From assembly GCA_030041735.1 (NCBI GenBank), contig JASIBA010000040.1, positions 1-40,693 on the forward strand: a stretch of DNA of 40,693 nucleotides, in the 5' to 3' direction. This document shows, piece by piece, positions 12,259 to 39,973 of this stretch (its first letter is position 1; the number at the start of each line of letters is the position of its first letter). The position numbers were made by a program, and so were the translations under genes. The stretch is from Thermoplasmata archaeon. GTDB lineage: Archaea > Thermoplasmatota > Thermoplasmata > Lutacidiplasmatales > UBA184. Under the pieces are notes generated by a model. The model worked only from the letters and a program-made list of their open reading frames with translations, did no database searches and was not told the DNA's origin.

Positions 12259-13182
12259 ATGCCCGAGCTCCACCACGGCGAAGGGGAGGCCGAGCAGCGC
12301 GTGCTGCGCGGGCTCCGCCTTGGCGTCGGGCTCTCGGCCGTCATCCTTGCCCTCGAGGCGGTCGGCGCCTACTTCTCGCACTCGCTCTCCCTGACGGTCG
12401 ACGCGGTCCACAACGTCCCCGACCTCCTCGCCTTCGGGATCTCCTGGTTCGCGCTCCGCGAGACGCGGGCCGGCTCGACCTCGGAGTTCACCTTCGGCAA
12501 GCACCGGCTCGAGGTGTTCGCCGGACTGTTCAACGGCCTCCTGATCCTCGCGGTCGGTCTCGTCTTCGGATACGAGGCCCTGGACGCGCTCCTCCGCGCG
12601 GTGCCGTTCGCCGGCCCGGTCGACGCCGTCTGGCTGCTCGCGGCCGCCGTGCCCACGCTGCTGCTGCGCGCGGTCAACCTGCGCGTGCTCGGGCGCCTCC
12701 CCGGTCGCGTCCGGGACCTGAACCTCCGCTCGGTGATCGTGCACCTCGCGAGCGACGTCGCGATCACGGTCGCGCTCCTGGCCGCGGGCGTGACCCTGCT
12801 GCTGCGCCCCGCGCTCGTCTGGACCGATGCGCTCGCGGCGATCGCCATCGCCGCGATCCTGGTCTACGAGAGCCTGCCGCTGCTGCGCGGGGGCTGGGAG
12901 GTCCTCACCGAGCGAACCCCCCACGGGCTCTCCGTCGCCTCGATCACCGAGGCCGCGCAGTCGGAGCGTGGCGTGACGGGGGTCCACGATGTCCACGTCT
13001 GGGCGGTCTGCGACACGCTGGTCTGCCTGACCGCGCACGTCGGGGTCGAGGAGATGACGATGGCCGAGGGGATGGACGTGATCCGGCGCCTGCGCGAGCG
13101 GATGGAGCGGGAGTTCGGGATCGTCCACGCCACGTTCGAGATCGAGGCCGCGCCGCGAGGCGCCGCGGCGCCCTCCCGATAA
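12259..13182 (+). CDS. Cation diffusion facilitator (CDF) divalent-metal efflux transporter
   Basis: SLSLTVDAVHNVPDLLA (TM2 HxxxD-like site), HLASDV (TM5) and a C-terminal GVTGVHDVHVWAV...AHV cytoplasmic domain are all present. Confidence 0.85.
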   Translation: MPELHHGEGEAEQRVLRGLRLGVGLSAVILALEAVGAYFSHSLSLTVDAVHNVPDLLAFGISWFALRETRAGSTSEFTFGKHRLEVFAGLFNGLLILAVGLVFGYEALDALLRAVPFAGPVDAVWLLAAAVPTLLLRAVNLRVLGRLPGRVRDLNLRSVIVHLASDVAITVALLAAGVTLLLRPALVWTDALAAIAIAAILVYESLPLLRGGWEVLTERTPHGLSVASITEAAQSERGVTGVHDVHVWAVCDTLVCLTAHVGVEEMTMAEGMDVIRRLRERMEREFGIVHATFEIEAAPRGAAAPSR

Positions 13183-19936: not shown

Positions 19937-20347
19937 TCACTCGACCCACTTCATCCCGCACTTCTCGCAGGACCCTTCGTGCAGCTCCGAGCCGCACACG
20001 AAGCAGTACGAGCTCGGATGCGGCTGGATCGGGGCCGGACCCTGCGGTACGGGTGCCGGATCCGGCAGCGGCGGGGGGGGCCGGGGGGCGGCCGGAGTCG
20101 CGGGGGCCGCGGGAGAGGGCACGGACGGGGTCGCCGGGGGGGCCGCCAGCGGCGCGCTCCCCCCGACGACCGGAGCCGGCGTGGGCGGAGCGCGCGAGGG
20201 TGCCGGGGCGGGCTTCGCGGGCGCGCTCGCGGGTCCCGGAGGGCCGGTGGGTCGGGCCGGGGCCGCCGCGCTCTTCGGGGCCGACGCCGGGGCGGCGGGC
20301 TTCTTGGGCGGCTCCTCCTCGCGCTTCCTCCGGCGAAAGAACGACAT
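19937..20347 (-). CDS. Pro/Ala-rich low-complexity protein with a C-terminal zinc ribbon
   Basis: MSFFRRRKREEEPPKK is followed by about 100 aa of P/A/S-rich sequence, then YCFVCGSELHEGSCEKCGMKWVE (CxxC-x8-CxxC). It is the 3' portion of a longer track ORF. Confidence 0.5.
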   Translation of the reverse strand: MSFFRRRKREEEPPKKPAAPASAPKSAAAPARPTGPPGPASAPAKPAPAPSRAPPTPAPVVGGSAPLAAPPATPSVPSPAAPATPAAPRPPPPLPDPAPVPQGPAPIQPHPSSYCFVCGSELHEGSCEKCGMKWVE

Positions 20348-20433
20348 GCGACCGTTACGACCCGGCGACGGAAGATAGGGATGTCGGCGCAGTCGAGCGC
20401 ACCGTTTTCCGCCGCGGGGGATACGGAGCCCCC

Positions 20434-20898
20434 GTGCCCACGACCCCCAGCGAGCGGCTGAAGGCCGCCGGGATCGAGCTCCCGCCGCCCCCGGCCCCGG
20501 CGGGCGCCTACAGCCCGGTGGTGGTGCACGACCGCCTCGGCTTCGTCTCGGGGCAGATCGTGCTCGAGGCCGGCGCGGTCGCTCGGCCCGGACTCGTGGA
20601 CCGGGACGTGCCGGCCGACGTTGCAAAGGACCTCGCGCGCCGGGCCACGCTGCAGGCCCTGAGCGCGATCCAGGCGGCCCTGGGCTCGATCGACCGGGTC
20701 CGGCGGTTCTACCGGGTCGCGGTCTACGTGGCCACCTCGCCGGGGTTCGAGAATCCGCATCAGGTCGCCAACGGCGCCACCGAGCTCCTCATCGAGCTCT
20801 TCGGGAACGAGGGACGACCGGCCCGGATCGCGATCGGAGTCCACAGCCTTCCGCTGAACGCCCCGATCGAGGTCGAGTACTGCTTCGCGACGTGGTAG
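20434..20898 (+). CDS. RidA/YjgF/TdcF family protein
   Basis: Starts at a GTG (MPTTPSERLKAAGIELP...AGAYSPVVVHDRLGFVSGQI...RIAIGVHSLPLNAPIEVEYCF). The upstream part of the track ORF is antisense to the Pro-rich gene. Confidence 0.8.
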   Translation: MPTTPSERLKAAGIELPPPPAPAGAYSPVVVHDRLGFVSGQIVLEAGAVARPGLVDRDVPADVAKDLARRATLQALSAIQAALGSIDRVRRFYRVAVYVATSPGFENPHQVANGATELLIELFGNEGRPARIAIGVHSLPLNAPIEVEYCFATW

Positions 20899-21587
20899 GG
20901 TTCGCGATGGAGCCCGCCGCGTGGCCCGGGGTGTTCCGGGAGGGTCGGGACCTGTACACGCGGAACGCTCGGCCCGGCGAGAGCGTGTACGGGGAACGCC
21001 GCGTCGCCCGGGACGGGGTCGAGTACCGCCTCTGGGATCCGTTCCGCTCGAAGCTCGCGGCGCTGTTCGCCCGGGGCGCGGTGCCGGCGTTGCCTCCCCG
21101 CGTCGAGCGGGTCCTCTACCTCGGCGCGGCGCACGGGACCACCGCCAGCCACCTCTCGGACGTGTGGCCGGAGGCCGCCCTCTTTGTGGTCGAGAAGAGC
21201 CCGACCTCGTTCGCGCCTCTGCTGGCGCTCGCGCGCCGTCGCGCGAACCTCTACCCGCTCCTCGCGGACGCCCAGCTCCCCGAGCGCTACCGGGCGGACG
21301 TCGGACTCGCCGATGTCCTCTACCAGGACGTGGCCCAGCGCGGACAGGCGGCGATCTTCGCCGAGAACGCGCGCGCCTGCCTCGCGCCGGGCGGGCTCGG
21401 GGTCCTCATGTTGAAGATCCGCTCGGTCACGCAGCGGCTGCCGGCGGCCCAGGTCGTCCGCGAGGCCCGCCGCGAGCTCGGGGTGGCCGGCCTCCCGGTC
21501 CGATCGGAGACGCCGCTCGCCCCGTTCTCGCGAGAGCATGCCGCCCTCGTCACCGGTGGCCCGTCCGCATCTTCCAGCGACCATTGA
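20892..21587 (+). CDS. flpA: Fibrillarin-like rRNA/tRNA 2'-O-methyltransferase
   Basis: LYTRNARPGESVYGERRV..GVEYRLWDPFRSKLAA...VLYLGAAHGTTASHLSD...LYQDVAQRGQAAIF matches the archaeal fibrillarin template. An alternative start lies at the ATG at 20907. Confidence 0.85.
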   Translation: MVGFAMEPAAWPGVFREGRDLYTRNARPGESVYGERRVARDGVEYRLWDPFRSKLAALFARGAVPALPPRVERVLYLGAAHGTTASHLSDVWPEAALFVVEKSPTSFAPLLALARRRANLYPLLADAQLPERYRADVGLADVLYQDVAQRGQAAIFAENARACLAPGGLGVLMLKIRSVTQRLPAAQVVREARRELGVAGLPVRSETPLAPFSREHAALVTGGPSASSSDH

Positions 21588-21638
21588 TCCGCCCCGCGGC
21601 AAATACCGCGCCCGAGTCCCCGGCCCCGGTGGGAATGC

Positions 21639-23798
21639 GTGGGCGCGACCGTCGGGTTCGTGAGCCTCTTCCTCATCGTCGTGGGCGGGCTGGCGTCCGG
21701 CGCATCGCCGGCCCCGGTCTCCGCCTCCGCCGGGCCGCTCGCCACGCTCCTGCCCGGGAGCAACGGCTCTTCGGCGACCCCGGTGCTCTCTCTCGACCCC
21801 GAGTCGTGGCAGATGCCGACCGGGAATGTCACTCCGGTCGTGGCGACCTGGGGCGGTGTCGCGCCGGGGTGCGTACTCGCCCCCCAGTGGTTCCGGTGGG
21901 CGATCGCGAGCGCGACGCCCTCGGGCTTCCTCAACCGGAGCTCGGGGCCAGCGGTGCTGTTCGAGAGCGAGGGGGCGTCGCCCGGCCCCTCGATGCTCCG
22001 GGCCAACTCGGCCGCGGTCCTGCGGTGCGGCCTCTCGCAGAGGCTCGTGCAGGCCGTCGCGTTCGGCAACGTGACCGTGGTCGCCTCGCTCTCGATCGAC
22101 GATCTCACGCTGCTGCCGGCGCCCTTGCTCCCTTCCGAGACCGCCCGGTTCTCCGGCACCATCCTTGGAGGCACCCCGCCGTACAGCCTGCGGATCAACT
22201 GGACGGACGGATCGGACGCGTACCTCTTGGTGGCCGCGCCGGGTAACTTCTCGGCGTCGCACGCCTTCGTCGCGGGCACCTACGAACCGGTCGTGACCGT
22301 CACGGACGCGAGCGGGCTCGTGGCGCAGGCCGCGGTGCCCGAGTCGGTCGTGGTCAGCGCCGGCACGGCCGTTGCCCTCTTTCCGGCGCGGGCGCGCGTC
22401 GACGTCGGCGAACCGCTCGGATGGAACGCGACGATCGTCCGGACGAGCGCGCCCTGGCTCTCGTACTCCCAGTGCGACGGCCGCATCGTGCCCCCCGCGA
22501 CGCGCGGCTCGGCCGCGACCGCGGGCAACTGCACTTTCCCCGCTCCGGGACCGGCGACGGTCTCCGTCGAGGTCGACGCGGTAGCGTCCGGGGGTCTCGC
22601 CAGCGCCACGGCAGCCGTCTCGGTGGTGCCGGACCCGGTGGTCTCCCCGGATCTCCCCCCGACCCCGCTCGAGGTGGGGGTCGCGACGGACCTGGTCGTC
22701 ACGATCGCGGGCGGCGTCCCCCCGTTCTCGCTCGCCGCCGCGGGTCCGGCGTTCGGGGGACCGACCGTGGTCCCCGTGCGGGGCGACGGCGCGGTCGCGA
22801 TCTCGCTGGAGCCCGATGTCGCCGGGACCCTGCCCTGCACGCTCGAGGTCGTCGATGCGGCCGGGGTTGCGAGCCCGCTGTGGGCAGGCACGCTCACCGT
22901 CCAACCCGCGATGTCCGCCTCCGTCGCGTTCGACGGGGTGGCCGGCCCTTCCGGAGCCTCCCTCGAGGCGACCGGAAGCGTCACCGCCGGGCCACCTCCC
23001 TTCGCCTGGATCGTTGTGCCCTCCGAGGTCTCCGCGAACGCGTCCGCGGAGAACGGGTCGCTGTCCGGGGACGGCTCGTTCGTCTGGACGGGACTGTACC
23101 GCGTCGAGGTGGCCATCGTCGTCGACGTGCTCGTTCTGGACGCGGCCGGTGCGATCGAGACGACCCACGGCACGGTGCCGACCCTGCCGCCGCTCGTAGT
23201 CTCGGGAGGCTTCCAGGGCAACGGCTCGACCCCGCCGGGTTCGATCGGCCTGTCGCTCGTCATCGCGGGCGGCTTGCCGCCCTTCAACATCTCGGTCACC
23301 GCGGGCGACGGCGCCTCGTGGAACTTCTCCCGGGAGGCGGACGGGCCGGCGGACTGGCAGTTGCGCGCCCCGCGCGCGGGCACGATCGCGCTGGTCGCGG
23401 TGGTGCGCGACGCGATCGGGGCGACGGGCGAAGAGAACGGCTCGGTCTTCGTCGCGACGCCGGCGTCGACGTCGGCCCCCAGCTCCTCGCTCGGGCCCGC
23501 GCTCGGCGGGCTCCTCGCGACCGGACTGCTCGCCGGGCTCCTGCTCGCCTGGCGCCGTCGGCGGGGTCGGGCGCCCGAGCGCGCGACGATCGATCCGGTC
23601 GCGGTGCTCCGGCAGATCATCGCGCCCGCTGACGGGGCGGACCGAGCCACCGTGGAGCTGCTGGCGGAGGAGGCCGGCGTTCCCCTCCTCGAGGCCCGCG
23701 CGAGCCTCGATCGGCTGGTGCGGGACGGCACGGTGCGCTCGGAGGTCGACGCGGACGGAACGGAGGTGCTGGCGTGGGAGCTCGACGCCCGCCGCTGA
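21639..23798 (+). CDS. Surface protein with tandem PKD/Ig-like repeats, one C-terminal TM helix and a cytoplasmic winged-helix-like tail
   Basis: The N-terminal hydrophobic segment is FVSLFLIVVGGLASGASPA. A GG(T/V/L)PP(Y/F) module recurs (GGTPPYSLRINWTDGS...HAFVAGTYEPVVTVTDASG; GGVPPFSL; AGPPPFAW; GGLPPFNISV). There are many N-x-S/T sequons. The TM LGPALGGLLATGLLAGLLLAW (23490-23552) is followed by RRRRGR and a 75-aa tail. Confidence 0.75.
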   Translation: MGATVGFVSLFLIVVGGLASGASPAPVSASAGPLATLLPGSNGSSATPVLSLDPESWQMPTGNVTPVVATWGGVAPGCVLAPQWFRWAIASATPSGFLNRSSGPAVLFESEGASPGPSMLRANSAAVLRCGLSQRLVQAVAFGNVTVVASLSIDDLTLLPAPLLPSETARFSGTILGGTPPYSLRINWTDGSDAYLLVAAPGNFSASHAFVAGTYEPVVTVTDASGLVAQAAVPESVVVSAGTAVALFPARARVDVGEPLGWNATIVRTSAPWLSYSQCDGRIVPPATRGSAATAGNCTFPAPGPATVSVEVDAVASGGLASATAAVSVVPDPVVSPDLPPTPLEVGVATDLVVTIAGGVPPFSLAAAGPAFGGPTVVPVRGDGAVAISLEPDVAGTLPCTLEVVDAAGVASPLWAGTLTVQPAMSASVAFDGVAGPSGASLEATGSVTAGPPPFAWIVVPSEVSANASAENGSLSGDGSFVWTGLYRVEVAIVVDVLVLDAAGAIETTHGTVPTLPPLVVSGGFQGNGSTPPGSIGLSLVIAGGLPPFNISVTAGDGASWNFSREADGPADWQLRAPRAGTIALVAVVRDAIGATGEENGSVFVATPASTSAPSSSLGPALGGLLATGLLAGLLLAWRRRRGRAPERATIDPVAVLRQIIAPADGADRATVELLAEEAGVPLLEARASLDRLVRDGTVRSEVDADGTEVLAWELDARR

Positions 23799-24187
23799 CC
23801 GCCGCGGTCCGTCGGGTCGTCGCGACCGGCCTGGTGCTCGGGATCCTGGGCGGGATCGCCCTCGTGGGTCCCGCGGCGCCGGCGCGCGCTCTTCCGACCC
23901 CCACGAGTGCCGTGTCGGAGGAACTTCGTGCCCAGACCAACGACTCTGCCGTAGCGAACTTCTCCGCGGCGATCACGCGACTGGTGGAGCTGGTCGGCGT
24001 GGCGGGCAGCGGATTGCTCGCCCTGGTCTGGGCCCGGGTCGCGCTGAGCTGGTTCTCCCACGACGTCACGAAGAAGGTGCAGGCGAAGGACCGGGCGCGC
24101 GACGCGCTGATCGGCACGCTGCTCTTCGTCGCCGCGCTCTCGGGCCTCATCTGGGGCCTCGCGCACTGGGTGCTCACCGGCACCTGA
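23774..24187 (+). CDS. VirB2/TrbC-like conjugative-pilin candidate (small two-helix membrane protein with a long signal peptide)
   Basis: A 39-aa leader ends in PARA before LPTPTS. The mature part is a hydrophobic helix (ITRLVELVGVAGSGLLALVWARVALSWF), a basic loop (SHDVTKKVQAKDRARD) and a second hydrophobic helix (ALIGTLLFVAALSGLIWGLAHWVL). It is positioned directly upstream of the VirB6-like and VirB4-like genes. Confidence 0.5.
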   Translation: MGARRPPLTAAVRRVVATGLVLGILGGIALVGPAAPARALPTPTSAVSEELRAQTNDSAVANFSAAITRLVELVGVAGSGLLALVWARVALSWFSHDVTKKVQAKDRARDALIGTLLFVAALSGLIWGLAHWVLTGT

Positions 24188-24200
24188 CGGAGCGCGGACC

Positions 24201-25334
24201 ATGTGGGCCGTCAGCCTCAGCGCGCTGATCCAAGAGATCCTGTTCCTCATCTTCGGCGGGCTCACCGCCCTGGCCGCGGCGGTCGTGGGCCCGACCTACG
24301 ACAACCTGCTCGTACCGGAGCTCGCGCCATCCGCCCTCTACCCCTCGCTCGTCGGGGCGAACGGCGGATCGTCGAACTATCTCGAGATCGCCTCCCGGTT
24401 CTCCGAGTTCACGTTGGGCGCGATCGTCGACCCGGCGATCGCGCTCGTCGCGCTCGGCGTGGCCGCGATCTACCTCGCCCGGGCGCTCAGCGACCGGTGG
24501 AGGGATCGGCTCGGCGGTTTCCTCCCGCGCCTCCTGATCGCGGTCGTCGCCGCGAACTTCACGGTGCCGATCGCCGGCCTCCTCGTCGGGCTGGGAGGCG
24601 GCCTCTACCCCGTCCTCGTGGGCTGGGACGGCGGTCGCTGGCAGCACTGGATCAACCTCGCCGGTTACGGCGAGGTCCAGTTCTCGTGGGACAACGGAGC
24701 GGTCGCGTTCGTCTTCACCATCGCCGAGTTCTTCCTCGTCTTCGGCCTCATCGTCGCGGTCGCGCTCCGCGACGCGCTGCTGGCGGTCCTCCTCGTCCTC
24801 CTGCCGATCTTCACCCTCCTCTGGCCGTTCGGGGTGCTCGCGCCCCTCGCCCGTAGGGCCTGGCTCCTGTTCGTCGAGCTCGTCTTCCTGCCCTGTGTGC
24901 TCGTCGTACCGCTCGAGCTCGCCGTCGGCAGCCCCTCGGTCGAGATGCTCCTCGCCTACCTCATCTGCGCCCTGGGTTCGCCGTTCCTCCTGTCCACGGC
25001 CGGGAGCCACCTCGCGGCGATCGGATTCCCGGTCGGCGGGGCGACTTCGGCCGGGGGGCTCCAGCAGGGCCTGCAGGCGACCTCGGGCGGAGCGGCGGGC
25101 TACCTGAGCCCCGCGAGCACCCCCGCCGGCGGTCGTTCCTCTCCCCTGGGGCCGGCGCTCGGCAGCGTGGCGCGTGCCGCGGGCAGCGCCAGCGCTCCGT
25201 CCGCGGCCCCGCTCGCCGCCGCCCACCTCGTCGGTCAGGCCGGGGTGCACCTCGTGCGGCACATCGGACCCGGCGCCGGTCGAGCGCCCGGGCCCGGCGC
25301 CTGGCCGCCGGTGCGGGGCGGAGGGCCGGGATGA
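24201..25334 (+). CDS. Polytopic membrane protein, VirB6/TrbL/CedA-like candidate
   Basis: It has about 6-7 predicted TM helices and a Gly/Ala/Ser-rich C-terminal tail. The assignment rests on topology and context, not on a recognised motif. Confidence 0.45.
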   Translation: MWAVSLSALIQEILFLIFGGLTALAAAVVGPTYDNLLVPELAPSALYPSLVGANGGSSNYLEIASRFSEFTLGAIVDPAIALVALGVAAIYLARALSDRWRDRLGGFLPRLLIAVVAANFTVPIAGLLVGLGGGLYPVLVGWDGGRWQHWINLAGYGEVQFSWDNGAVAFVFTIAEFFLVFGLIVAVALRDALLAVLLVLLPIFTLLWPFGVLAPLARRAWLLFVELVFLPCVLVVPLELAVGSPSVEMLLAYLICALGSPFLLSTAGSHLAAIGFPVGGATSAGGLQQGLQATSGGAAGYLSPASTPAGGRSSPLGPALGSVARAAGSASAPSAAPLAAAHLVGQAGVHLVRHIGPGAGRAPGPGAWPPVRGGGPG

Positions 25335-25335
25335 C

Positions 25336-26121
25336 ATGGCCTCGGCGGACGACGGCCCCCCGATCGTCCCGCTTCCGGAACGGGTCGATCGCCCCCTCCG
25401 GCTCGGCCCGTTCCCCTCGGCGCGGGATGCGCTCAAATTCCTCGCCTACGCGGCCGCCGGCGCGCTCCTCGCGGTGGTCGTATCGCCCTGGCTGGGCCTC
25501 GGCGCCGTCGCGCTCGGGTTCGGCCTCGCGGTCGCCCGGATCGACGGCACCCCGCTCGACCGGCGCGCGCTCGCGATCCTTCGCTTCCACCTCGCCGCCC
25601 CTCCGAAGAGGATGCCCGTGAATCGGGGGCCGGCCTCGGCCCTGGCGCGGCGCGGGATCGTGACGGCCGAGGACGGGAGGTACGTCGCGGTGGTGCGGGC
25701 GGGCGGGGCCCCCGTCGCCTACCTGCCTCCCGCGGAGCTGGCACGACGGTTCGACCGGTTTCGAGAGCTGCTCCGCGCCGGTCCGGGCGAGCTGGTCTTC
25801 CGTGCCTCCTTCGCACCGATGCGCGCCGGACCAGTCCTACCGGAGGATATCCCACCGGACCGGGTCGACCGCGCCGCCCGCGACGGCTACGCGGATCTCC
25901 TGCGCCTGATATGCGGCCGCCGGAGCGTTCGGCAGGTCGATCTGGCCGTCGCCGCGTCGCGGCCGGGCGCGAACGGCATCGACGAGCTGGAGATCCGGAT
26001 CGAGGGGTTGCTCGAGCGGCTGGCGACCCTCGACGTGCCCGCCCGACGACTGCGCGGAGCGCGGCTTCGGGAAGCGGTCCCTCGCGTGTACGCGCCCCTT
26101 CGCGAGGAATCCTTAGGATGA
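25336..26121 (+). CDS. VirB3/PrgI-like membrane hairpin fused to a VirB4 N-terminal-segment-like domain
   Basis: VPLPERVDRPLRLGPFPSARDALKFLAYAAAGALLAVVV...ARIDGTPLDRRALAILRFHL resembles PrgI/VirB3. It is followed by IVTAEDGRYVAVVRAGGAPVAYLPPAELARRFDRFRELLRAGPGELVFRAS, which resembles the extreme N-terminal segment of Gram-positive-type VirB4 proteins. Confidence 0.5.
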   Translation: MASADDGPPIVPLPERVDRPLRLGPFPSARDALKFLAYAAAGALLAVVVSPWLGLGAVALGFGLAVARIDGTPLDRRALAILRFHLAAPPKRMPVNRGPASALARRGIVTAEDGRYVAVVRAGGAPVAYLPPAELARRFDRFRELLRAGPGELVFRASFAPMRAGPVLPEDIPPDRVDRAARDGYADLLRLICGRRSVRQVDLAVAASRPGANGIDELEIRIEGLLERLATLDVPARRLRGARLREAVPRVYAPLREESLG

Positions 26122-26492
26122 CCGCGTCGGAAGGACCCCCGGCCCCGGAGTTCGACGCGTTCCGCGTGGCGGTCGGTTTCGGCGTGCTCTCGGGCGCGGC
26201 CGCCCTCGTCCTCCCGTTCCTCGATTCGTTGACCCTCGCTCTTGCCGCCATCGCCCTCGCGGCGTGGGTCTGGCGACGCTCGCCCCGGCCGTTGGGGGTT
26301 CGCCATCGCCCGTGGCTCCGCGCGGCCGGGGGCTGGGCATGCGCGGCCCTCGGCTTCGGGGCGTTCTGGGGACTCTCGGCCCCGCTCTCCTCGATCCGGG
26401 GCCTCGTCCTCGGACTCTCGCTGGTTCCCTTGTGGTGGCTCGATCGCGGGGGGCCGTCGGTCCCGCCCACGGGAGGGAGGGACCCGGGATGA
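26118..26492 (+). CDS. Small multi-pass membrane protein (124 aa), hypothetical
   Basis: It has three or four hydrophobic helices (VAVGFGVLSGAAALVLPFL, LTLALAAIALAAWVW, GGWACAALGFGAFWGL, GLVLGLSLVPLWW). ATGA overlaps occur at both ends. Confidence 0.55.
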   Translation: MTASEGPPAPEFDAFRVAVGFGVLSGAAALVLPFLDSLTLALAAIALAAWVWRRSPRPLGVRHRPWLRAAGGWACAALGFGAFWGLSAPLSSIRGLVLGLSLVPLWWLDRGGPSVPPTGGRDPG

Positions 26493-28171
26493 CGGGGCGC
26501 GTCGAGGCTCCGCCGGAGGAGCACCCCCACTGGATCCGGATCGGCCAGAGGTTCGTGGCCCCTCTCCTCGTTCGGCAGTTTCCGCCCGAGCTCCCGTTCG
26601 GGTTCCTGGGCCGCGTGCTGCCGACCACCGAGCCGGTGGAGTTCGCGATCGAGGCGCACCGTCTCCCCTCGGAGCGGGCGCTCGAGATCCTGCATCGGGC
26701 GCGGACCGTCGCCGACGCCGAGCTCGCGACGGGCGGCCGAGGGACTCCCCACGCGGAGCTCGAGGTCGAGCGCGACGCGGCCGAGGAGTTCGGCCGGGCG
26801 GTCGCCCGTCGCTCGCAGGAACTGTGGCGGGTGGGGATCCGCTTCGCGGCCGAAGCGGACTCGCGGCCGCGGGCGGAGGCGGTCCGGGTCCGGCTGGCCG
26901 AGCGGCTCACCGCCCTGGGGTTCCGGTGCCGGGTCCCGCGACACGAAGTCGGGGCGGCCCTGCGATCGCCCGGCGACCGCTCGTCGTCCCATCGGCCCGA
27001 GGGCTACTGGCAGACCCTCCCGACCGATGGCCTGGCGGCGCTGTTCCCGTTCGTGGACGAGGCGATCGTCGAGCCCCGGGGGATCCTCGTCGGTCTCGCG
27101 CTCGCCGACGCGAGTCCGGTGTTCCTCGACCGCTGGGGACGGACGAGCCACTCCTGGGGGATCTTCGGGACGACCGGCGCCGGCAAGTCCTACACGGCCG
27201 CGCTCGCGGTCCTGCGCTCCCGATGGGCCCGGCCGACCGCAGGGATCACCCTGCTCGATCCCCTGGGGGAATTCGCGCCGTTCGTCCGCGCGCTCGGAGG
27301 CGACGTGGTACGGGTCGGCGCCGGAGAGGGGCGGATCAATCCGCTCGACCCCGCGACCACCCGGGGCGACCGGTCGGAGAAGGCGGCGCGGATCGGAGCG
27401 ATGCTCCGCGCGGTGTTCCCCACGCTCACCGACGACGAGGCCGCGCGGCTCGACTCAGCGGTGACGCGCCTCTACACCGGGCGGGACGACGTGCCGACGT
27501 TCTCCGATCTTCGGGCCGAGGTGGCACGCGACCGCGACCCGCCCGACCGCCTGCTGGGCCTGCTCGAGGTGTTCCGGTCGGGTTCGCTCCGCGCGGTCAA
27601 CGGCGCGTCGCAGGTCCTGCCGGACTCCTCGCTGGTCGACGTCGATCTCCACGGGATCCCCGACGACCAGCTCCCGTTCCACCTGACCTACCTCCTCGAC
27701 TGGGTCTACGGCCGCATCCGGGACCGCCCCGGCCCGAAGCTCGTCGTGGTGGACGAGGTCCATCTGCTCCTGCGGCACCGCGCCACGGCGGAGTTCCTCG
27801 ACCGGGTGGTCCGCCACGTGCGCCATTTCGAAGCCGGCTTCTTGCTGCTCAGCCAGCGACCCGACGACTTCCTCGACCTTCCGAGCGGTCGGGGGGTGCT
27901 CCAGAACCTCGACGCGGTCGGACTGCTGCGGCTCCCGGGCGTGTCGGCCGCGACGCGGGAGTTCTTCGGCCTCACCGGCCCCGAGGCGGAGTGGCTGCCC
28001 AAAGCCCGGCTCCCCCGCGAGATCGGGTATGCCGAGTCGCTCTGGCGGATCGGCGAGCTCCACCTGCCGCTCGCGATCGTCGCCTCGACCCCCGAGCACA
28101 CCCTGCTCGCGGGCACGCTCGGGCAAGGGACCGGGGCCGTGGAACCTGCCTCTGGAAACGGGTCTTTATGA
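26489..28171 (+). CDS. VirB4/TrbE/CedB-type conjugation ATPase
   Basis: IRIGQRFVAPLLVRQFPPELPFGFLGRV matches the Y.r.l.i..yP..v..gWl motif. GIFGTTGAGKSY is the Walker A (about 27166-27192). LLDPLGEF and INPLD are present. KLVVVDEVHLLL is the Walker B (about 27736-27770). The motif LLLSQRPDDF is also present. Confidence 0.85.
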   Translation: MTGRVEAPPEEHPHWIRIGQRFVAPLLVRQFPPELPFGFLGRVLPTTEPVEFAIEAHRLPSERALEILHRARTVADAELATGGRGTPHAELEVERDAAEEFGRAVARRSQELWRVGIRFAAEADSRPRAEAVRVRLAERLTALGFRCRVPRHEVGAALRSPGDRSSSHRPEGYWQTLPTDGLAALFPFVDEAIVEPRGILVGLALADASPVFLDRWGRTSHSWGIFGTTGAGKSYTAALAVLRSRWARPTAGITLLDPLGEFAPFVRALGGDVVRVGAGEGRINPLDPATTRGDRSEKAARIGAMLRAVFPTLTDDEAARLDSAVTRLYTGRDDVPTFSDLRAEVARDRDPPDRLLGLLEVFRSGSLRAVNGASQVLPDSSLVDVDLHGIPDDQLPFHLTYLLDWVYGRIRDRPGPKLVVVDEVHLLLRHRATAEFLDRVVRHVRHFEAGFLLLSQRPDDFLDLPSGRGVLQNLDAVGLLRLPGVSAATREFFGLTGPEAEWLPKARLPREIGYAESLWRIGELHLPLAIVASTPEHTLLAGTLGQGTGAVEPASGNGSL

Positions 28172-28193
28172 GGGTAGAGGACGAGCCCCGGAC

Positions 28194-28697
28194 GTGGACG
28201 CCGAGGCGACGGCCGCGGGCCCCCCGCGCCGGCGCGCGAGCTGGAGCCTGAAGTCAATCGTCGAGGACGTGGCCGGCCGACCGATCGGCGAGCTCCAGGA
28301 TCCGGGGAAGCCGGTCCACCCGTATCTCGAGGGCAAGGGCGTCGCCGCGGCGCCTCCGACCGCGAGGGTCGCTTCCGGCGAGGCCCCGTACGATCCGGTG
28401 GGGCACGTCTACCCTCCGCTCGTGGGTCCGCTCGGCCGGGACTACCACGGGGCCGAGCACGAGCACCACGCGGAGACCCTCCAGCACCACCCGCCGCACA
28501 CCGATTCCTCGCCCGGGAACCCCGCGCGCCCGGGCGGCCCCATGCACCGGCCCGAGCGAATCTACCTGCACTATCTTCTGCTGCACATGGATCGGCTGAG
28601 CCCGTCCGCGCTCCAGTACCTCAGGACCGCGGTCGAGGAGGAGCTCGCGCACCGCGCGCGGCCGCCCCTCCCGCCGACGCCCGCCGCGACGGAGTGA
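28194..28697 (+). CDS. Hypothetical His-rich protein (start uncertain: GTG at 28194 or 28269)
   Basis: The plus frame has very high GC3 throughout. It contains HGAEHEHHAETLQHHPPHTD and a C-terminal helix-like RIYLHYLLLHMDRLSPSALQYLRTAVEEELAHR. The antisense 132-aa ORF has junk composition. Confidence 0.45.
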   Translation: MDAEATAAGPPRRRASWSLKSIVEDVAGRPIGELQDPGKPVHPYLEGKGVAAAPPTARVASGEAPYDPVGHVYPPLVGPLGRDYHGAEHEHHAETLQHHPPHTDSSPGNPARPGGPMHRPERIYLHYLLLHMDRLSPSALQYLRTAVEEELAHRARPPLPPTPAATE

Positions 28698-29508
28698 CGA
28701 CCTCCCAGCCGAGGGCCCGGCCCCGTTCGGCGAGCTCGGCGAAGACGGTCGGGTCGCGTTCGACCCCGATCGCGTTCCGGCCCCACCGTTGCGCGGCCGC
28801 GAGCGTCGTGCCGGTGCCCGCGAACGGATCCAGGACGGTCTCCCCGAGCAGCGAGAACATGCGGACCAGCCGTCCCGGGACCTCGTCGGGGAACGCCGCG
28901 CTCCGGCGGCCCCCGGCGTCCTGCCGCGCGCCGCGGATGTCGTCCCAGATCTGGCTGAACCAGCGGTCCCGCTCGGCCCGGGAGTACCGGCTCGCCGCGC
29001 GCGCCGGGTCGTGGCGGGGCAGGCGCCGCAGCGGGCCCTTCCGGAACAGCAGCACGAACTCGCAGTCGAGCGTCACGTAGGCGTTCGGAGGCTCGAAGCC
29101 GGAACCGAGGAACGCGTTCGGCCGGTTCGTCGGCTTCTTCCAGAGGACGTAGGGCAGCGACCGGAAGCCCGCCCGCTCGGCCCCCACGATCACGCGGGCG
29201 TGGTTCGGCCAGAGACGGAACTCCCCGTCGGTCGTGCGCAGCGCGTCGCCGACGTTCACGGCGAGGAGACCCCCCGGCACCAGGACCCGGTGGGCGGCCT
29301 GCCACGCCGGGTCGAGCAGCCGGTGCATCGCCTCGAAGTCGCGCGCCCCGAGCCGCGCGAACGGCGCGTCCCACTGGGGGATCATCGGGTACGGCGGCGA
29401 CGTGACGATGAGGTGGACCGATCCGTCCTCGATCCCCGCGAGTCGCCGCGCGTCGCCCCGGAGCAGGCGGACCCGTCCCGCCGCGGGCTCCGGCACGGGC
29501 CGGGGCAC
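28621..29508 (-). CDS. DNA methyltransferase, N4/N6 (beta-class motif order), SPPY catalytic motif
   Basis: DGSVHLIVTSPPYPM is motif IV (about 29386-29403) and lies N-terminal to VLDPFAGTGTTLAAAQRWGRNAIGVE, motif I (about 28806-28832). The start was taken at an in-frame GTG (29508 or 29496). The upstream part of the track ORF is antisense to the HPS gene. Confidence 0.8.
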   Translation of the reverse strand: MPRPVPEPAAGRVRLLRGDARRLAGIEDGSVHLIVTSPPYPMIPQWDAPFARLGARDFEAMHRLLDPAWQAAHRVLVPGGLLAVNVGDALRTTDGEFRLWPNHARVIVGAERAGFRSLPYVLWKKPTNRPNAFLGSGFEPPNAYVTLDCEFVLLFRKGPLRRLPRHDPARAASRYSRAERDRWFSQIWDDIRGARQDAGGRRSAAFPDEVPGRLVRMFSLLGETVLDPFAGTGTTLAAAQRWGRNAIGVERDPTVFAELAERGRALGWEVVTPSRRASAGGAAARGARAPPRPRS

Positions 29509-29551: not shown

Positions 29552-30856
29552 ATGCGGCTCGACCACCCCGTCCTGCAGGTCGCGCTCGACTTCGAGAACC
29601 TGTCGCGCGCGATGCTCGCGGCCAAGGAGGCGGTGGAAGGGGGCGCCGACTGGGTCGAGGCGGGCACCCCGCTCTTGAAGAGCGAGGGGCTCGACGCGGT
29701 CCGAGAGCTGAAGAAGGCGTTCCCGGATCGGCGGATCGTCGCCGACATGAAGGTCATGGACACCGGCGCGTTCGAGGTCGAGATCGCCGCCAAGGCGGGG
29801 GCCGACATCGTCACGATCCTCGGGGCTGCGGACGACGACACGATCGCCGACGGCGTCCGGGGCGGCGAGCTCTACGGCGCCGAGGTGATGGTCGACCTGC
29901 TCAATGTTCCGGATCCGGTGGCCCGGGCCCGCCGGGTCGCCGAGCTCGGGGCCGGCGCGGTCTGCTGGCACGTCGGGATCGACATGCAGATGCAGGCCCG
30001 GACGCCGTTCGAGGTGCTCCAGGAGATCGCGGCGGCCTCGCCGATCCCGGTCGCGGTCGCCGGCGGCCTCAACTCCGAGTCGGTGGCGGCCGCGGTGGGA
30101 GCGGGCGCCCAGATCCTGATCGTCGGGGGGGCGATCACGAAGAGCCCGCAGATGGTCGAAGCGACCCGGCGGATCCGCCGCGCGATCGACACCGGCGAGG
30201 CCCAGGCGACCGAGCTGTTCCGCCGGTACTCCGGCGCCGGGATCCGGGAAGCGTTCCTCAAGGTCTCGAGCCCCAACGTGTCCGATGCGCTGCAGCGCCA
30301 AGGCGCGATGCACGGGATCGTCGCGCACCTCAAGGACCCGACCGTGCGGATGGCCGGACCCGCCGTCACGGTCGTGACCCGGGACGGGGACTGGGCGAAG
30401 CCGGTCGAGGCGATCGACCACGCGGGCCCCGGCGACGTCATCGTGGTCGACGCGGGCGGGGGGACGACCGCGATCTGGGGGGAACTCGCGAGCTGGAGCG
30501 CGCACGGCCGGCACGTCGCGGGCGTCGTCATCGACGGCGCCGCCCGGGACGTGGACGCCATCCTCGAGCTCGGGTTCCCGGTCTTCAGCCGCTTCGTCAG
30601 CCCGAACGCCGGCGAGCCGAAGGGCCTCGGGGAGATCGGGGTCGAGGTGGTCGTGGGCGGCCAGCGGGTCCGACCGGGCGACTGGATCGTCGGCGATCTC
30701 TCGGGCGTGGTGGTCGTCCCCCGCGAGCGGGCGCAGGAGATCGCGAACCGGGCGCTGGACGTCCTGGAGCACGAGAACCGGGTCCGCGAGGAGATCCAGC
30801 GCGGCTCGACGCTCGGAACCGTCCAGAAGCTCGAGCGCTGGGAGCGGGTCGGCTAG
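29552..30856 (+). CDS. Bifunctional 3-hexulose-6-phosphate synthase / RraA-like (ribonuclease regulator/aldolase fold) fusion protein
   Basis: The N-terminal half, LQVALDFENLSRAMLAAKEAVEGGADWVEAGTPLLKSEG...IVADMKVMDTG...VAGGL, is the HPS/OMPDC fold. The C-terminal half, VSDALQRQGAMHG...GDVIVVDAGG...AIWGELASWSAHGRHVAGVVIDGAARD, is RraA-like. Confidence 0.8.
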   Translation: MRLDHPVLQVALDFENLSRAMLAAKEAVEGGADWVEAGTPLLKSEGLDAVRELKKAFPDRRIVADMKVMDTGAFEVEIAAKAGADIVTILGAADDDTIADGVRGGELYGAEVMVDLLNVPDPVARARRVAELGAGAVCWHVGIDMQMQARTPFEVLQEIAAASPIPVAVAGGLNSESVAAAVGAGAQILIVGGAITKSPQMVEATRRIRRAIDTGEAQATELFRRYSGAGIREAFLKVSSPNVSDALQRQGAMHGIVAHLKDPTVRMAGPAVTVVTRDGDWAKPVEAIDHAGPGDVIVVDAGGGTTAIWGELASWSAHGRHVAGVVIDGAARDVDAILELGFPVFSRFVSPNAGEPKGLGEIGVEVVVGGQRVRPGDWIVGDLSGVVVVPRERAQEIANRALDVLEHENRVREEIQRGSTLGTVQKLERWERVG

Positions 30857-38942: not shown

Positions 38943-39017
38943 GCTCCCGTAGTCTAGTCCGGTCAAGGATTCGGCGCCTTCGACGCCGTAACGTGGGTTC
39001 AAATCCCGCCGGGAGCA
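38943..39017 (+). tRNA. tRNA-Glu (anticodon UUC), no encoded CCA
   Basis: The cloverleaf was folded by hand. The acceptor is GCTCCCG/CGGGAGC, the D stem GTCT/GGAT, the anticodon stem CGGCG/CGCCG with loop CCTTCGA, the T arm GTGGG-TTCAAAT-CCCGC, and the discriminator is A. The overall sequence resembles archaeal tRNA-Glu. Confidence 0.8.
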
Positions 39018-39232
39018 CCCACTTCCCTCGTCCTGTCAGGGGGCGTCGGGTCTGGCGCACTTCGCCTCTCGGGCGGGTGGGTGCAATAGCGATTTCGACT
39101 CCGGTGCCACGCATCCGGAGACGCCGTGGGCCGGAGCGTGGTGCTTGCAGGCCGAGCCGGAATTGGGCACTCGGTCGAGGCCAGCCGAAGTCGGCTGCGG
39201 GATGGAGTGTCAGAAGCCGGAATCGAGGGCGC

Positions 39233-39950: not shown

Positions 39951-39973
39951 GCCTCGGAATCCCGGTGCAAGTG

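Follow-up and report, generated by a model that had tools for sequence, protein, structure and literature searches.

A fixed seven-gene operon of Lutacidiplasmatales archaea as a candidate minimal type IV secretion apparatus

For this analysis, we compared a seven-gene operon from a Thermoplasmata archaeon with the chromosomal type IV secretion systems (T4SSs) described so far. The operon lies in a stretch of 40,693 nucleotides (GenBank assembly GCA_030041735.1, contig JASIBA010000040.1, positions 1 to 40,693), which was analyzed as a whole and is called the window. According to PMC9905601, Ced (Sulfolobales and Desulfurococcales) and Ted (Thermoproteales) are chromosomal T4SS derivatives for DNA import, built of VirB4, VirB6 and VirB2 components only, with Ced importing DNA; the same source reports the domestication of conjugation machinery as unique to these two systems of hyperthermophilic crenarchaea. 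The chromosomal T4SS of Patescibacteria comprises VirB4, TrsD (distantly homologous to the N-terminus of VirB4), PrgI, VirB6, and VirB2-like pilins, and usually no relaxase (PMC12102498). The MPF-FATA systems of Firmicutes, Actinobacteria, and haloarchaeal plasmids form the third set compared here.

The operon occupies positions 21639-28697 of the plus strand, and its genes were numbered g1 to g7 along that strand. On balance, we consider it reasonably probable that these genes encode a minimal T4SS apparatus of the monoderm type, which is fixed in its clade and would move a macromolecule, most likely chromosomal DNA, between cells. The features are as follows.

21601-21608, plus strand: promoter-like A/T element CAAATACC, about 30-40 nt 5' of the g1 start
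21639-23798, plus strand: g1, 719 aa, PKD-repeat surface protein, candidate adhesin
23774-24187, plus strand: g2, 137 aa, candidate VirB2-type (T4SS_pilin-like) pilin
24201-25334, plus strand: g3, 377 aa, polytopic membrane protein, candidate VirB6/TrbL-like channel subunit
25336-26121, plus strand: g4, 261 aa, predicted PrgI/VirB3-like transmembrane (TM) hairpin fused to the first part of a VirB4 N-terminal domain
26118-26492, plus strand: g5, 124 aa, small hydrophobic membrane protein
26489-28171, plus strand: g6, 560 aa, VirB4-family ATPase, the predicted motor
28194-28697, plus strand: g7, 167 aa, soluble His-rich protein with a GTG start at 28194

The original prediction, made from the letters of the window, had described seven co-directional genes, and the same open reading frames (ORFs) and junctions were recovered, with overlaps or gaps of at most 22 nt. 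The first two genes overlap by 25 nt (g2 GTG at 23774, g1 TGA at 23796-98), a 13-nt gap separates g2 from g3, g3 and g4 meet at TGAcATG, both junctions of g5 have the form ATGA, and g7 follows g6 after 22 nt. An independent caller, whose public calls are available for identical contigs, gave the same genes of 719, 137, 377, 261, 124, 560, and 167 aa. Coding on the plus strand was further backed by codon-position GC content across the module (third-position GC, 0.85-0.95). All seven genes are under purifying selection, with pairwise ratios of nonsynonymous to synonymous substitution (dN/dS) of 0.07-0.40; because each gene is kept in dozens of genomes at such ratios, the module is far beyond chance. 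Upstream of g1, an AAATA(c/g)c-type element stands at a similar distance from the start in most of 34 orthologous upstream regions, in genomes of 72% GC, and a GGTGG Shine-Dalgarno-like motif directly precedes the start codon. The A/T element suggests a TATA box and an operon with its own promoter. A sigma-70 promoter and terminator scan found no promoter, a model irrelevant for archaea.

When compared with Ced and Ted, as described in PMC9905601, the module is likewise chromosomal, vertically inherited, and without a relaxase, and likewise combines a VirB4-like ATPase with putative VirB6-like and VirB2-like proteins. Like TedC, g2 has a cleavable-looking signal peptide. The module differs from both systems in its host, a member of Thermoplasmatota from soil and peat metagenomes, and in holding all seven genes in one tight operon. 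Its PrgI/VirB3 protein with a split VirB4, PKD adhesin with a winged-helix tail, small membrane protein, and His-rich protein are not among the Ced/Ted components named in the available part of that source. It also lacks the ParA/VirC1, Rad50, and HerA neighbours typical of Ted: no ParA, Rad50, or HerA gene was seen near the operon, either in the window or in orthologous loci. Of the NCBIfam Ced models, only CedD matched g6 (4.5e-7, partial) and none matched g2 to g5; NCBIfam models and PDB pilin searches gave no orthology to CedA, CedA1/A2, or CedB. The VirB4-like proteins of Thermoproteota and Methanomethylicales (L083, L084) match residues 185-458 of g6 only, with 26% identity. The predicted mismatch with Ced and Ted was borne out by a different layout and by the lack of detectable sequence likeness. 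No description of the module was found in the literature searched on Thermoplasmatota VirB4, archaeal chromosomal T4SS, and Ced/Ted, and secretion, pili, and conjugation go unmentioned in the Lutacidiplasmatales paper.

By component set, the closest system is the T4SS of Patescibacteria (candidate phyla radiation, CPR; MPF-FATA-like), which is likewise chromosomal, lineage-wide, and usually relaxase-free. Its layout is seen in L067, a low-GC bacterial metagenome-assembled genome (MAG), whose short VirB4 ranks with the top outgroup hits to g6 (E ~5e-32, ~24% identity). The module differs in its archaeal host, in the fusion of the TrsD-like domain to PrgI in one protein, in a single candidate pilin gene instead of a pilin cluster, and in the additional PKD adhesin, g5, and g7. 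VirB1, VirB8, and the type IV coupling protein (T4CP) were not detected in the module.

The MPF-FATA systems resemble the module in their VirB4, since the best models for g6 are those of CD1110 and of a Mycoplasma integrated conjugative element (ICE), and in the core of an Embleya plasmid, where a small gene lies between a PrgI-long gene and a short VirB4. Gram-positive systems, pCF10 among them, can also have an adhesin gene 5' of their T4SS genes. The plasmid systems, unlike the module, reside on mobile replicons and come with a T4CP, a cell-wall hydrolase, and either a relaxase or a replication-relaxation protein; identity to them does not exceed ~30%.

Motor, candidate channel and pilin, and accessory proteins

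The motifs first listed for g6 are all present (Walker A GTTGAGKS, DPLGEF, INPLD, VVVDEVH, and SQRPDD), and the Walker A residues G227, T229, G230, G232, and K233 as well as the Walker B residues D422 and E423 are invariant across 22 family members. Among NCBIfam models, g6 scored best with VirB4 of CD1110 (7e-33), followed by the Mycoplasma ICE VirB4 (VirB4_plasma, 2.5e-23), VirB4_CagE (4.8e-13), TraC (5e-11), the partial CedD match, and the HerA models (3e-4 or weaker). All VirB4 scores were under the 'equivalog' cut-offs, and g6 is therefore a divergent member of VirB4. The best PDB sequence match was 4ag5, the VirB4 C-terminal domain (9.5e-13), and the only Pfam match above threshold was DUF87. 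The VirB4 scores and the PDB match agree with the prediction of a VirB4-type ATPase and not of a HerA/FtsK type, and the NCBI pipeline has already named some ATPases of this family 'VirB4 family type IV secretion system protein'. The dN/dS of g6 is ~0.1. In four long-read MAGs (L052, L061, L063, and L064), the ATPase frame is broken or shortened (398 aa in L064, for instance), which may reflect either indel errors in the assemblies or true pseudogenes.

The alignment of g6 covers positions 203-692 of the 752 in the CD1110 profile, and its match starts at residue 236 of Blautia VirB4 (823 aa) and at residue 276 of P0490. Because the profile and Blautia matches start at 203 and 236, g6 lacks the first ~200-235 residues of a full-length VirB4. 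By the evidence of the alignments, the missing residues sit in g4, which has a PrgI/VirB3-like hairpin at ~29-66 and a TrsD/TraC-like VirB4 N-terminal part at ~100-261. The family of g4 is itself unannotated and ~260 aa long everywhere. We searched 1.84 billion representative proteins with the g4 profile, which reached, outside its own family, relatives of 225-300 aa and two long proteins of 782 aa (P0490) and 802 aa (P0502). Residues 83-253 of P0490 match g4 83-247, and residues 48-249 of P0502 match g4 50-252. The Pfam families of P0490 are PrgI at 5-81, above the gathering score, and a VirB4-type ATPase at 474-762, and its residues 276-777 align with g6. Since P0490 aligns with g4 and then with g6, the two proteins colinearly tile a VirB3-VirB4 fusion protein, in agreement with the 'split VirB4' of the original prediction.

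The claim that g4 is PrgI/VirB3-like also stood. The g4 profile reaches proteins that carry PrgI above threshold, with 38-48 bits in P0496, P0498, and P0500 (294-297 aa), and the g4 homologue of locus L094 has precomputed matches to PrgI and PF26593 'TraC-like'; direct Pfam PrgI matches were obtained in 3/57 g4 orthologues. In the AlphaFold2 (AF2) model of g4 (pLDDT 87), an alpha/beta domain comes after a TM hairpin made of helices 29-48 and 51-66. In Foldseek against PDB, R388 TrwK/VirB4 came first by probability (0.90-0.98) with the lowest root-mean-square deviation (4.6-5.2 A over 137-155 columns), although the E-values were no better than 0.05-0.1. The g4 profile matched no PDB sequence at E up to 10, and hhalign gave no significant alignment of this profile with single sequences, namely the N-terminus of Blautia VirB4 and two L067 proteins, one PrgI-like and one TrsD-like; it was the search of 1.84 billion representatives that established the link. 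Taken together, the alignments make a split VirB3-VirB4 motor of g4 and g6 a well-supported reading.

For g3 and g2, the gene order of two more distant cassettes, both with families above threshold, was informative. In L092, genes for a T4SS_pilin and a TrbL_3 protein precede a PrgI-long gene, after which come a small gene and a short VirB4; the L094 cassette consists of a T4SS_pilin, an unassigned 318-aa protein, a PrgI plus TraC-like protein, and a short VirB4, without a small gene. Because the order of the module matches these two cassettes, g3 is read as VirB6-like and g2 as pilin-like.

The g3 protein has at least six TM segments and a low-complexity C-terminal tail. Precomputed Pfam matches to TrbL_3 (PF19590) were present in 13/120 close g3 homologues and, weakly, in those of a sister lineage. 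In hhalign, a three-lineage g3 profile aligned with the L092 protein that carries TrbL_3 and holds the corresponding place in its operon (probability 79.9%, E 1.4e-5, 130 columns), and the g3 profile matched no PDB sequence at E up to 10. From these moderate profile matches and synteny, g3 is probably a VirB6/TrbL-like channel subunit.

The predicted signal peptide of g2, with a basic n-region and a hydrophobic segment, has an ARA|L site; the N-terminus of the protein is variable and its core strongly conserved, with two hydrophobic helices by hydropathy joined by the invariant basic loop KKVQAKDRARD. The only recurrent family was Pfam T4SS_pilin (PF18895), in 17/51 orthologues, none of which reached the gathering score (best E 0.0027), and hhalign of g2 with its positional counterpart in L092, a genuine PF18895 pilin, gave E 0.005-0.011. 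Sub-threshold matches, topology, and synteny together indicate that g2 is probably a VirB2-type pilin. The hhalign comparisons of g2 and g3 with the L094 pilin and the L094 318-aa protein were not significant. Separately, a motif at g2 108-127, ARDALIGTLLF..A..GL.W, resembles g3 189-208 RDALLAVLLVLLPIFTLLW (40% over 20 columns); the likeness is not significant (hhalign E 0.034, probability 1.5%) and recalls the VirB2/VirB6 similarity of CedA1 and CedA.

The accessory proteins begin with g1, a candidate adhesin for cell-cell or surface contact. An N-terminal signal or anchor is followed by approximately five PKD/Ig-like repeats with a GGxPPF/Y...W.DG motif, a predicted C-terminal TM helix at 618-636, and a winged-helix tail of ~80 residues (~640-719), predicted to be cytoplasmic. 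The original prediction of an adhesin with such a tail was supported by Pfam scans of 37 orthologues, where PKD was found in 12/37 (best 2.6e-8), besides SprB, Big_13, and PKD_4, and where the tail matched winged-helix families only: DUF5817_CT (16/37), Rrf2 (14/37), and, in fewer orthologues, GntR, EutK_C, MarR_2, and TrmB. The tail profile reached winged helix-turn-helix regulators in PDB at E 0.04-0.5. The dN/dS of g1 is ~0.3, and the tail is its best-conserved part.

The g5 gene, encoded between the two VirB4 parts, evolves fast (dN/dS 0.22-0.40) and had no Pfam or NCBIfam match beyond chance. A counterpart of 70-125 aa stands at the same position in the sister-lineage, low-GC, and L092 cassettes and is absent from L094. 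As for g7, 7.8% of its residues are His, and the conserved motifs PPRRRxSWSLKTIVEDVAGRPI, YDPV..YPPLVG..GR..HG, and PERLYLHYLLLHMDRL alternate with variable linkers. It is present 3' of the ATPase in every Lutacidiplasmatales locus that is long enough (41-96% identity, dN/dS 0.07-0.38). No match in Pfam, NCBIfam, or PHROG and no PDB relative was found for g7, nor did a counterpart turn up in the sister lineage or any other cassette; the 169-aa gene after the L092 ATPase is dissimilar. By these comparisons, g7 is a clade-specific accessory. The PHROGs search added nothing on the module genes.

A winged-helix partner recurs in different forms around these cassettes, the g1 tail included. In three species, ~1.2 kb is inserted between the ATPase and g7 (L012 11650-12970, also L020 and L049), and the L012 insert encodes a TrmB-family winged-helix protein; in L094, a TrmB gene (12673-13041) directly follows the ATPase.

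Chromosomal position and related cassettes

The window is archaeal, with a fibrillarin gene at 20892-21587. The original prediction had guessed a Thermoplasmatota-like host, and the close ATPase homologues indeed place it in Thermoplasmata, in the UBA184/Lutacidiplasmatales clade. The close homologues number in the hundreds; the 120 matches listed are 62-89% identical and all ~560 aa, and those of them that bear an organism name all read 'Thermoplasmata archaeon'. In the orthologue scan, which used one genome per GTDB species, the module was found in 62 species-level genomes of one clade, including UBA184 and Ca. Lutacidiplasma silvani (order Lutacidiplasmatales). ATPase identity is 49-89% inside the clade and drops abruptly to 22-27% outside it, where the relatives are in haloarchaeal replicons, Firmicutes, a bacterial MAG, and Thermoproteota.

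Orthologous loci were examined with 10 kb on each side. In tblastn, every locus that is long enough contained DUF885 (minus strand), YjgF, fibrillarin, and g1 to g7 in the same order and orientation. Downstream, a DNA methylase (minus strand) and HPS-RraA were found in all but three long-enough loci; the exceptions, Ca. Lutacidiplasma silvani among them, have no methylase or HPS within 10 kb. Identities across the clade are 49-89% for g6, 54-87% for g2, 45-62% for g3, 35-89% for g4, and 26-58% for g1, in addition to the g7 range given above, and are comparable to those of the flanking genes (fibrillarin, 56-75%; HPS, 77-89%). The claims of housekeeping flanks and host-like composition were confirmed by the fibrillarin gene upstream, HPS downstream, and a GC content of 70-77% along the module (~74% overall), as in the flanks (window 65-77%).

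No integrase, relaxase, coupling ATPase, or replication gene was found among the scanned called genes of the 40 kb window, in which a few short ORFs have no Pfam match. Mobility genes were also absent within 10 kb on either side in the orthologous loci with Pfam-annotated genes. The single tRNA gene of the window, tRNA-Glu (38943-39019), is 10 kb away, with no adjoining integrase. The prediction that this is neither a plasmid nor an ICE therefore held, given the identical position and order in 62 species-level genomes and the lack of integrase, relaxase, and T4CP in the window. Because of the constant site and order, the flank-like identities, and the lack of mobility genes, the operon is a chromosomal trait that is fixed in the Lutacidiplasmatales/UBA184 clade and passed on vertically, not an ICE.

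Homologous cassettes occupy other chromosomal sites in other lineages. The cassette of a sister lineage (ATPase 43-44% identical) has genes of 1804-1816, 159-160, 394-422, 248-255, 125, and 576-600 aa, the first of which has strong PKD matches; it adjoins DnaJ on two contigs, one of them 124 kb long and carrying a tRNA synthetase gene. A low-GC lineage has a cassette with genes of 1131, 118, 436, 263, 116, and 541 aa, whose ATPase matches at E 4e-87 and whose candidate pilin and channel genes align with hhalign probabilities of 98.9% and 99.9%. The four-gene core of L094 adjoins the archaeal RNA polymerase operon, and this lineage is taken as archaeal because of its flanking genes. A Cas12f1-like/TnpB fragment 5' of the low-GC cassette (L090 818-1210) is the only mobile-element-like gene beside any related cassette.

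The best plasmid relatives of the ATPase are at most ~30% identical. On a linear plasmid of the actinomycete Embleya, a PrgI-family gene (349 aa) and a short VirB4 ATPase (643 aa) enclose a small gene, and genes for a T4CP, a replication-relaxation protein, and an NlpC/P60 hydrolase come next. This plasmid is a mobile version with exactly the parts missing from the Lutacidiplasmatales module.

Function and competing explanations

In the proposed mechanism, g6 would form a hexamer anchored by g4 and would dock on the g3 channel through the g4 hairpin. The motor would then drive the extraction of g2 and its polymerisation into a short pilus or conduit, and g1 would make the contact with a cell or surface. 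In Gram-positive T4SSs, adhesins encoded 5' of the T4SS genes make contact. The assembled machine would move a macromolecule between cells; speculatively, by analogy with Ced and Ted, the most likely cargo would be chromosomal DNA that the cell takes up or exchanges, and the original prediction had likewise been cautious in naming a DNA-exchange or pilus system. The g1 winged helix and g7 may be cytoplasmic handling or regulatory parts, which is again speculative.

Several results weigh against this reading of the operon. The operon contains no DNA-processing gene (HerA/NurA, Rad50, ParA/VirC1, or nuclease), and the T4SS of Patescibacteria is thought to serve an epibiotic lifestyle, without a proven DNA role. 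The g2 and g3 matches are under the curated thresholds of the pilin and VirB6 family models: 49 g3 orthologues scanned directly with Pfam yielded no VirB6/TrbL match, the AF2 model of g3 was poor (pLDDT 62) and uninformative in Foldseek, and the g2 profile matched no solved pilin chain in PDB at E up to 10. The winged-helix tail of g1 could be a regulatory or protein-binding module and not a DNA handler. Finally, we know of no cultured host of the module.

The same T4SS-derived machine may have a role other than DNA transfer, as an adhesive pilus, a contact organelle, or a device for protein or small-molecule transfer between cells, which we regard as a real, if somewhat doubtful, possibility. 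It would account for a large PKD adhesin as the first gene and for the lack of a relaxase, T4CP, or DNA-processing gene; moreover, the component set is closest to that of the Patescibacteria system, which is required for epibiotic growth, and the giant Ig-repeat proteins associated with VirB4 in nanohaloarchaea have been proposed as mediators of host interaction. However, Lutacidiplasmatales are described as free-living soil archaea (PMC9287336), their assemblies reach contigs or chromosomes of up to 1.8-2.3 Mb, and no effector-like genes are linked to the operon. In addition, the g1 winged helix is at least compatible with nucleic-acid handling, and the sole experimentally characterised chromosomal T4SS derivative of archaea, Ced, imports DNA.

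A second explanation, that the module is the transfer part of an ICE or of a decaying integrated plasmid with its mobility genes elsewhere, is very unlikely and already contradicted by the observations. Archaeal VirB4 clusters are mostly reported on plasmids or integrated elements, and distant relatives of the module are on haloarchaeal and actinomycete plasmids; nevertheless, the nearest plasmid relative has an identity of only ~30% or less, 62 species-level genomes share the same position, orientation, and flanks despite the spread of their ATPases over 49-89% identity, the composition is host-like, every gene has a dN/dS of at most about 0.4, and the window holds no integrase, relaxase, T4CP, or replication gene, its lone tRNA being 10 kb off. 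A HerA/FtsK-type DNA pump or helicase in a non-T4SS membrane complex is scarcely credible for g6 and contradicted by its relationships, since the sole above-threshold Pfam match (DUF87, 'Helicase HerA central domain') and several HerA-like source annotations stand against VirB4 models far ahead of HerA, VirB4 as the best PDB match, a partner g4 homologous to PrgI and the VirB4 N-terminal domain, and related cassettes with T4SS_pilin and TrbL_3 at the g2 and g3 positions.

Under the preferred reading of a chromosomal T4SS apparatus that moves DNA, the module appears to be a third instance, so far undescribed, in which archaea have retained conjugation machinery for purposes of their own. A more extended picture, which we put forward tentatively, is that of a third, independently domesticated conjugation machine, the first outside the hyperthermophilic Thermoproteota, that would be common to Lutacidiplasmatales and the related cassettes of other lineages and would serve chromosomal DNA exchange or uptake in mesophilic soil archaea. 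In this picture, the PKD adhesin would confer partner specificity, and either its cytoplasmic tail or g7 would pass DNA to the split motor or receive it from there, replacing the relaxase and coupling protein. An order-wide, fixed, and strongly conserved T4SS operon in abundant mesophilic soil Thermoplasmatota would change the view of domestication as unique to Ced and Ted. The homologous cassettes at other chromosomal sites point the same way, and the capture of conjugation machinery would, if this is true, be recurrent; contact-dependent exchange of DNA or other macromolecules could then be common among uncultured archaea. A naturally split VirB3-VirB4 is also useful for probing the role of the VirB4 N-terminal domain, and the seven genes offer a compact set for study, with accessory parts that have no known relatives or precedent, namely an adhesin that bears a cytoplasmic winged helix, and g7 with its high His content.

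Flanking genes and minor observations

Three further features adjoin the module.

19937-20626, minus strand: Pro/Ala-rich ORF that ends in a CxxC...CxxC zinc ribbon (weak DZR match), between DUF885 and YjgF
28621-29508, minus strand: N6_N4 DNA methyltransferase, 295 aa by the public call, converging on g7
29552-30856, plus strand: fusion of hexulose-6-phosphate synthase (HPS, OMPdecase/HUMPS family) and an RraA-like aldolase domain, the most conserved gene of the neighbourhood (77-89% identical across the clade)

The original prediction had counted the neighbouring methylase as an accessory part, and nothing was found that ties it to the system. Its 3' end overlaps that of g7 by 77 nt (28621-28697), and no restriction enzyme gene is adjacent. 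We rejected the methylase as a component: it is encoded on the opposite strand, some genomes have insertions between it and g7, and three loci (L053, L056, and L059) lack it within 10 kb. In one sublineage (L003, L004, L006, and L007, at ~12364-13172), a toxin-antitoxin pair of an NTP_transf_2 nucleotidyltransferase and HepT lies between g7 and the methylase. At the place of the Pro/Ala-rich ORF, L003 and L004 have a 100-aa gene.

The other upstream genes of the window encode MarR, ADH, glyoxalase, radical SAM, amidohydrolase, MFS transporters, thioredoxin, peroxiredoxin, CDF, GNAT, PPK2, SDR, and OsmC proteins. Further downstream are genes for SnoaL, acyl-CoA synthetase, TruA, the Pst transporter, and PhoU. 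After tRNA-Glu, a stretch of lower GC (53-60%) extends to ~40.1 kb, with ORFs that have no Pfam match; a hidden integrase in this stretch (39.2-40.1 kb) was considered and rejected, as no Pfam match was found there. An AbrB/MazE-PhoU gene starts at 39965 and runs off the window.

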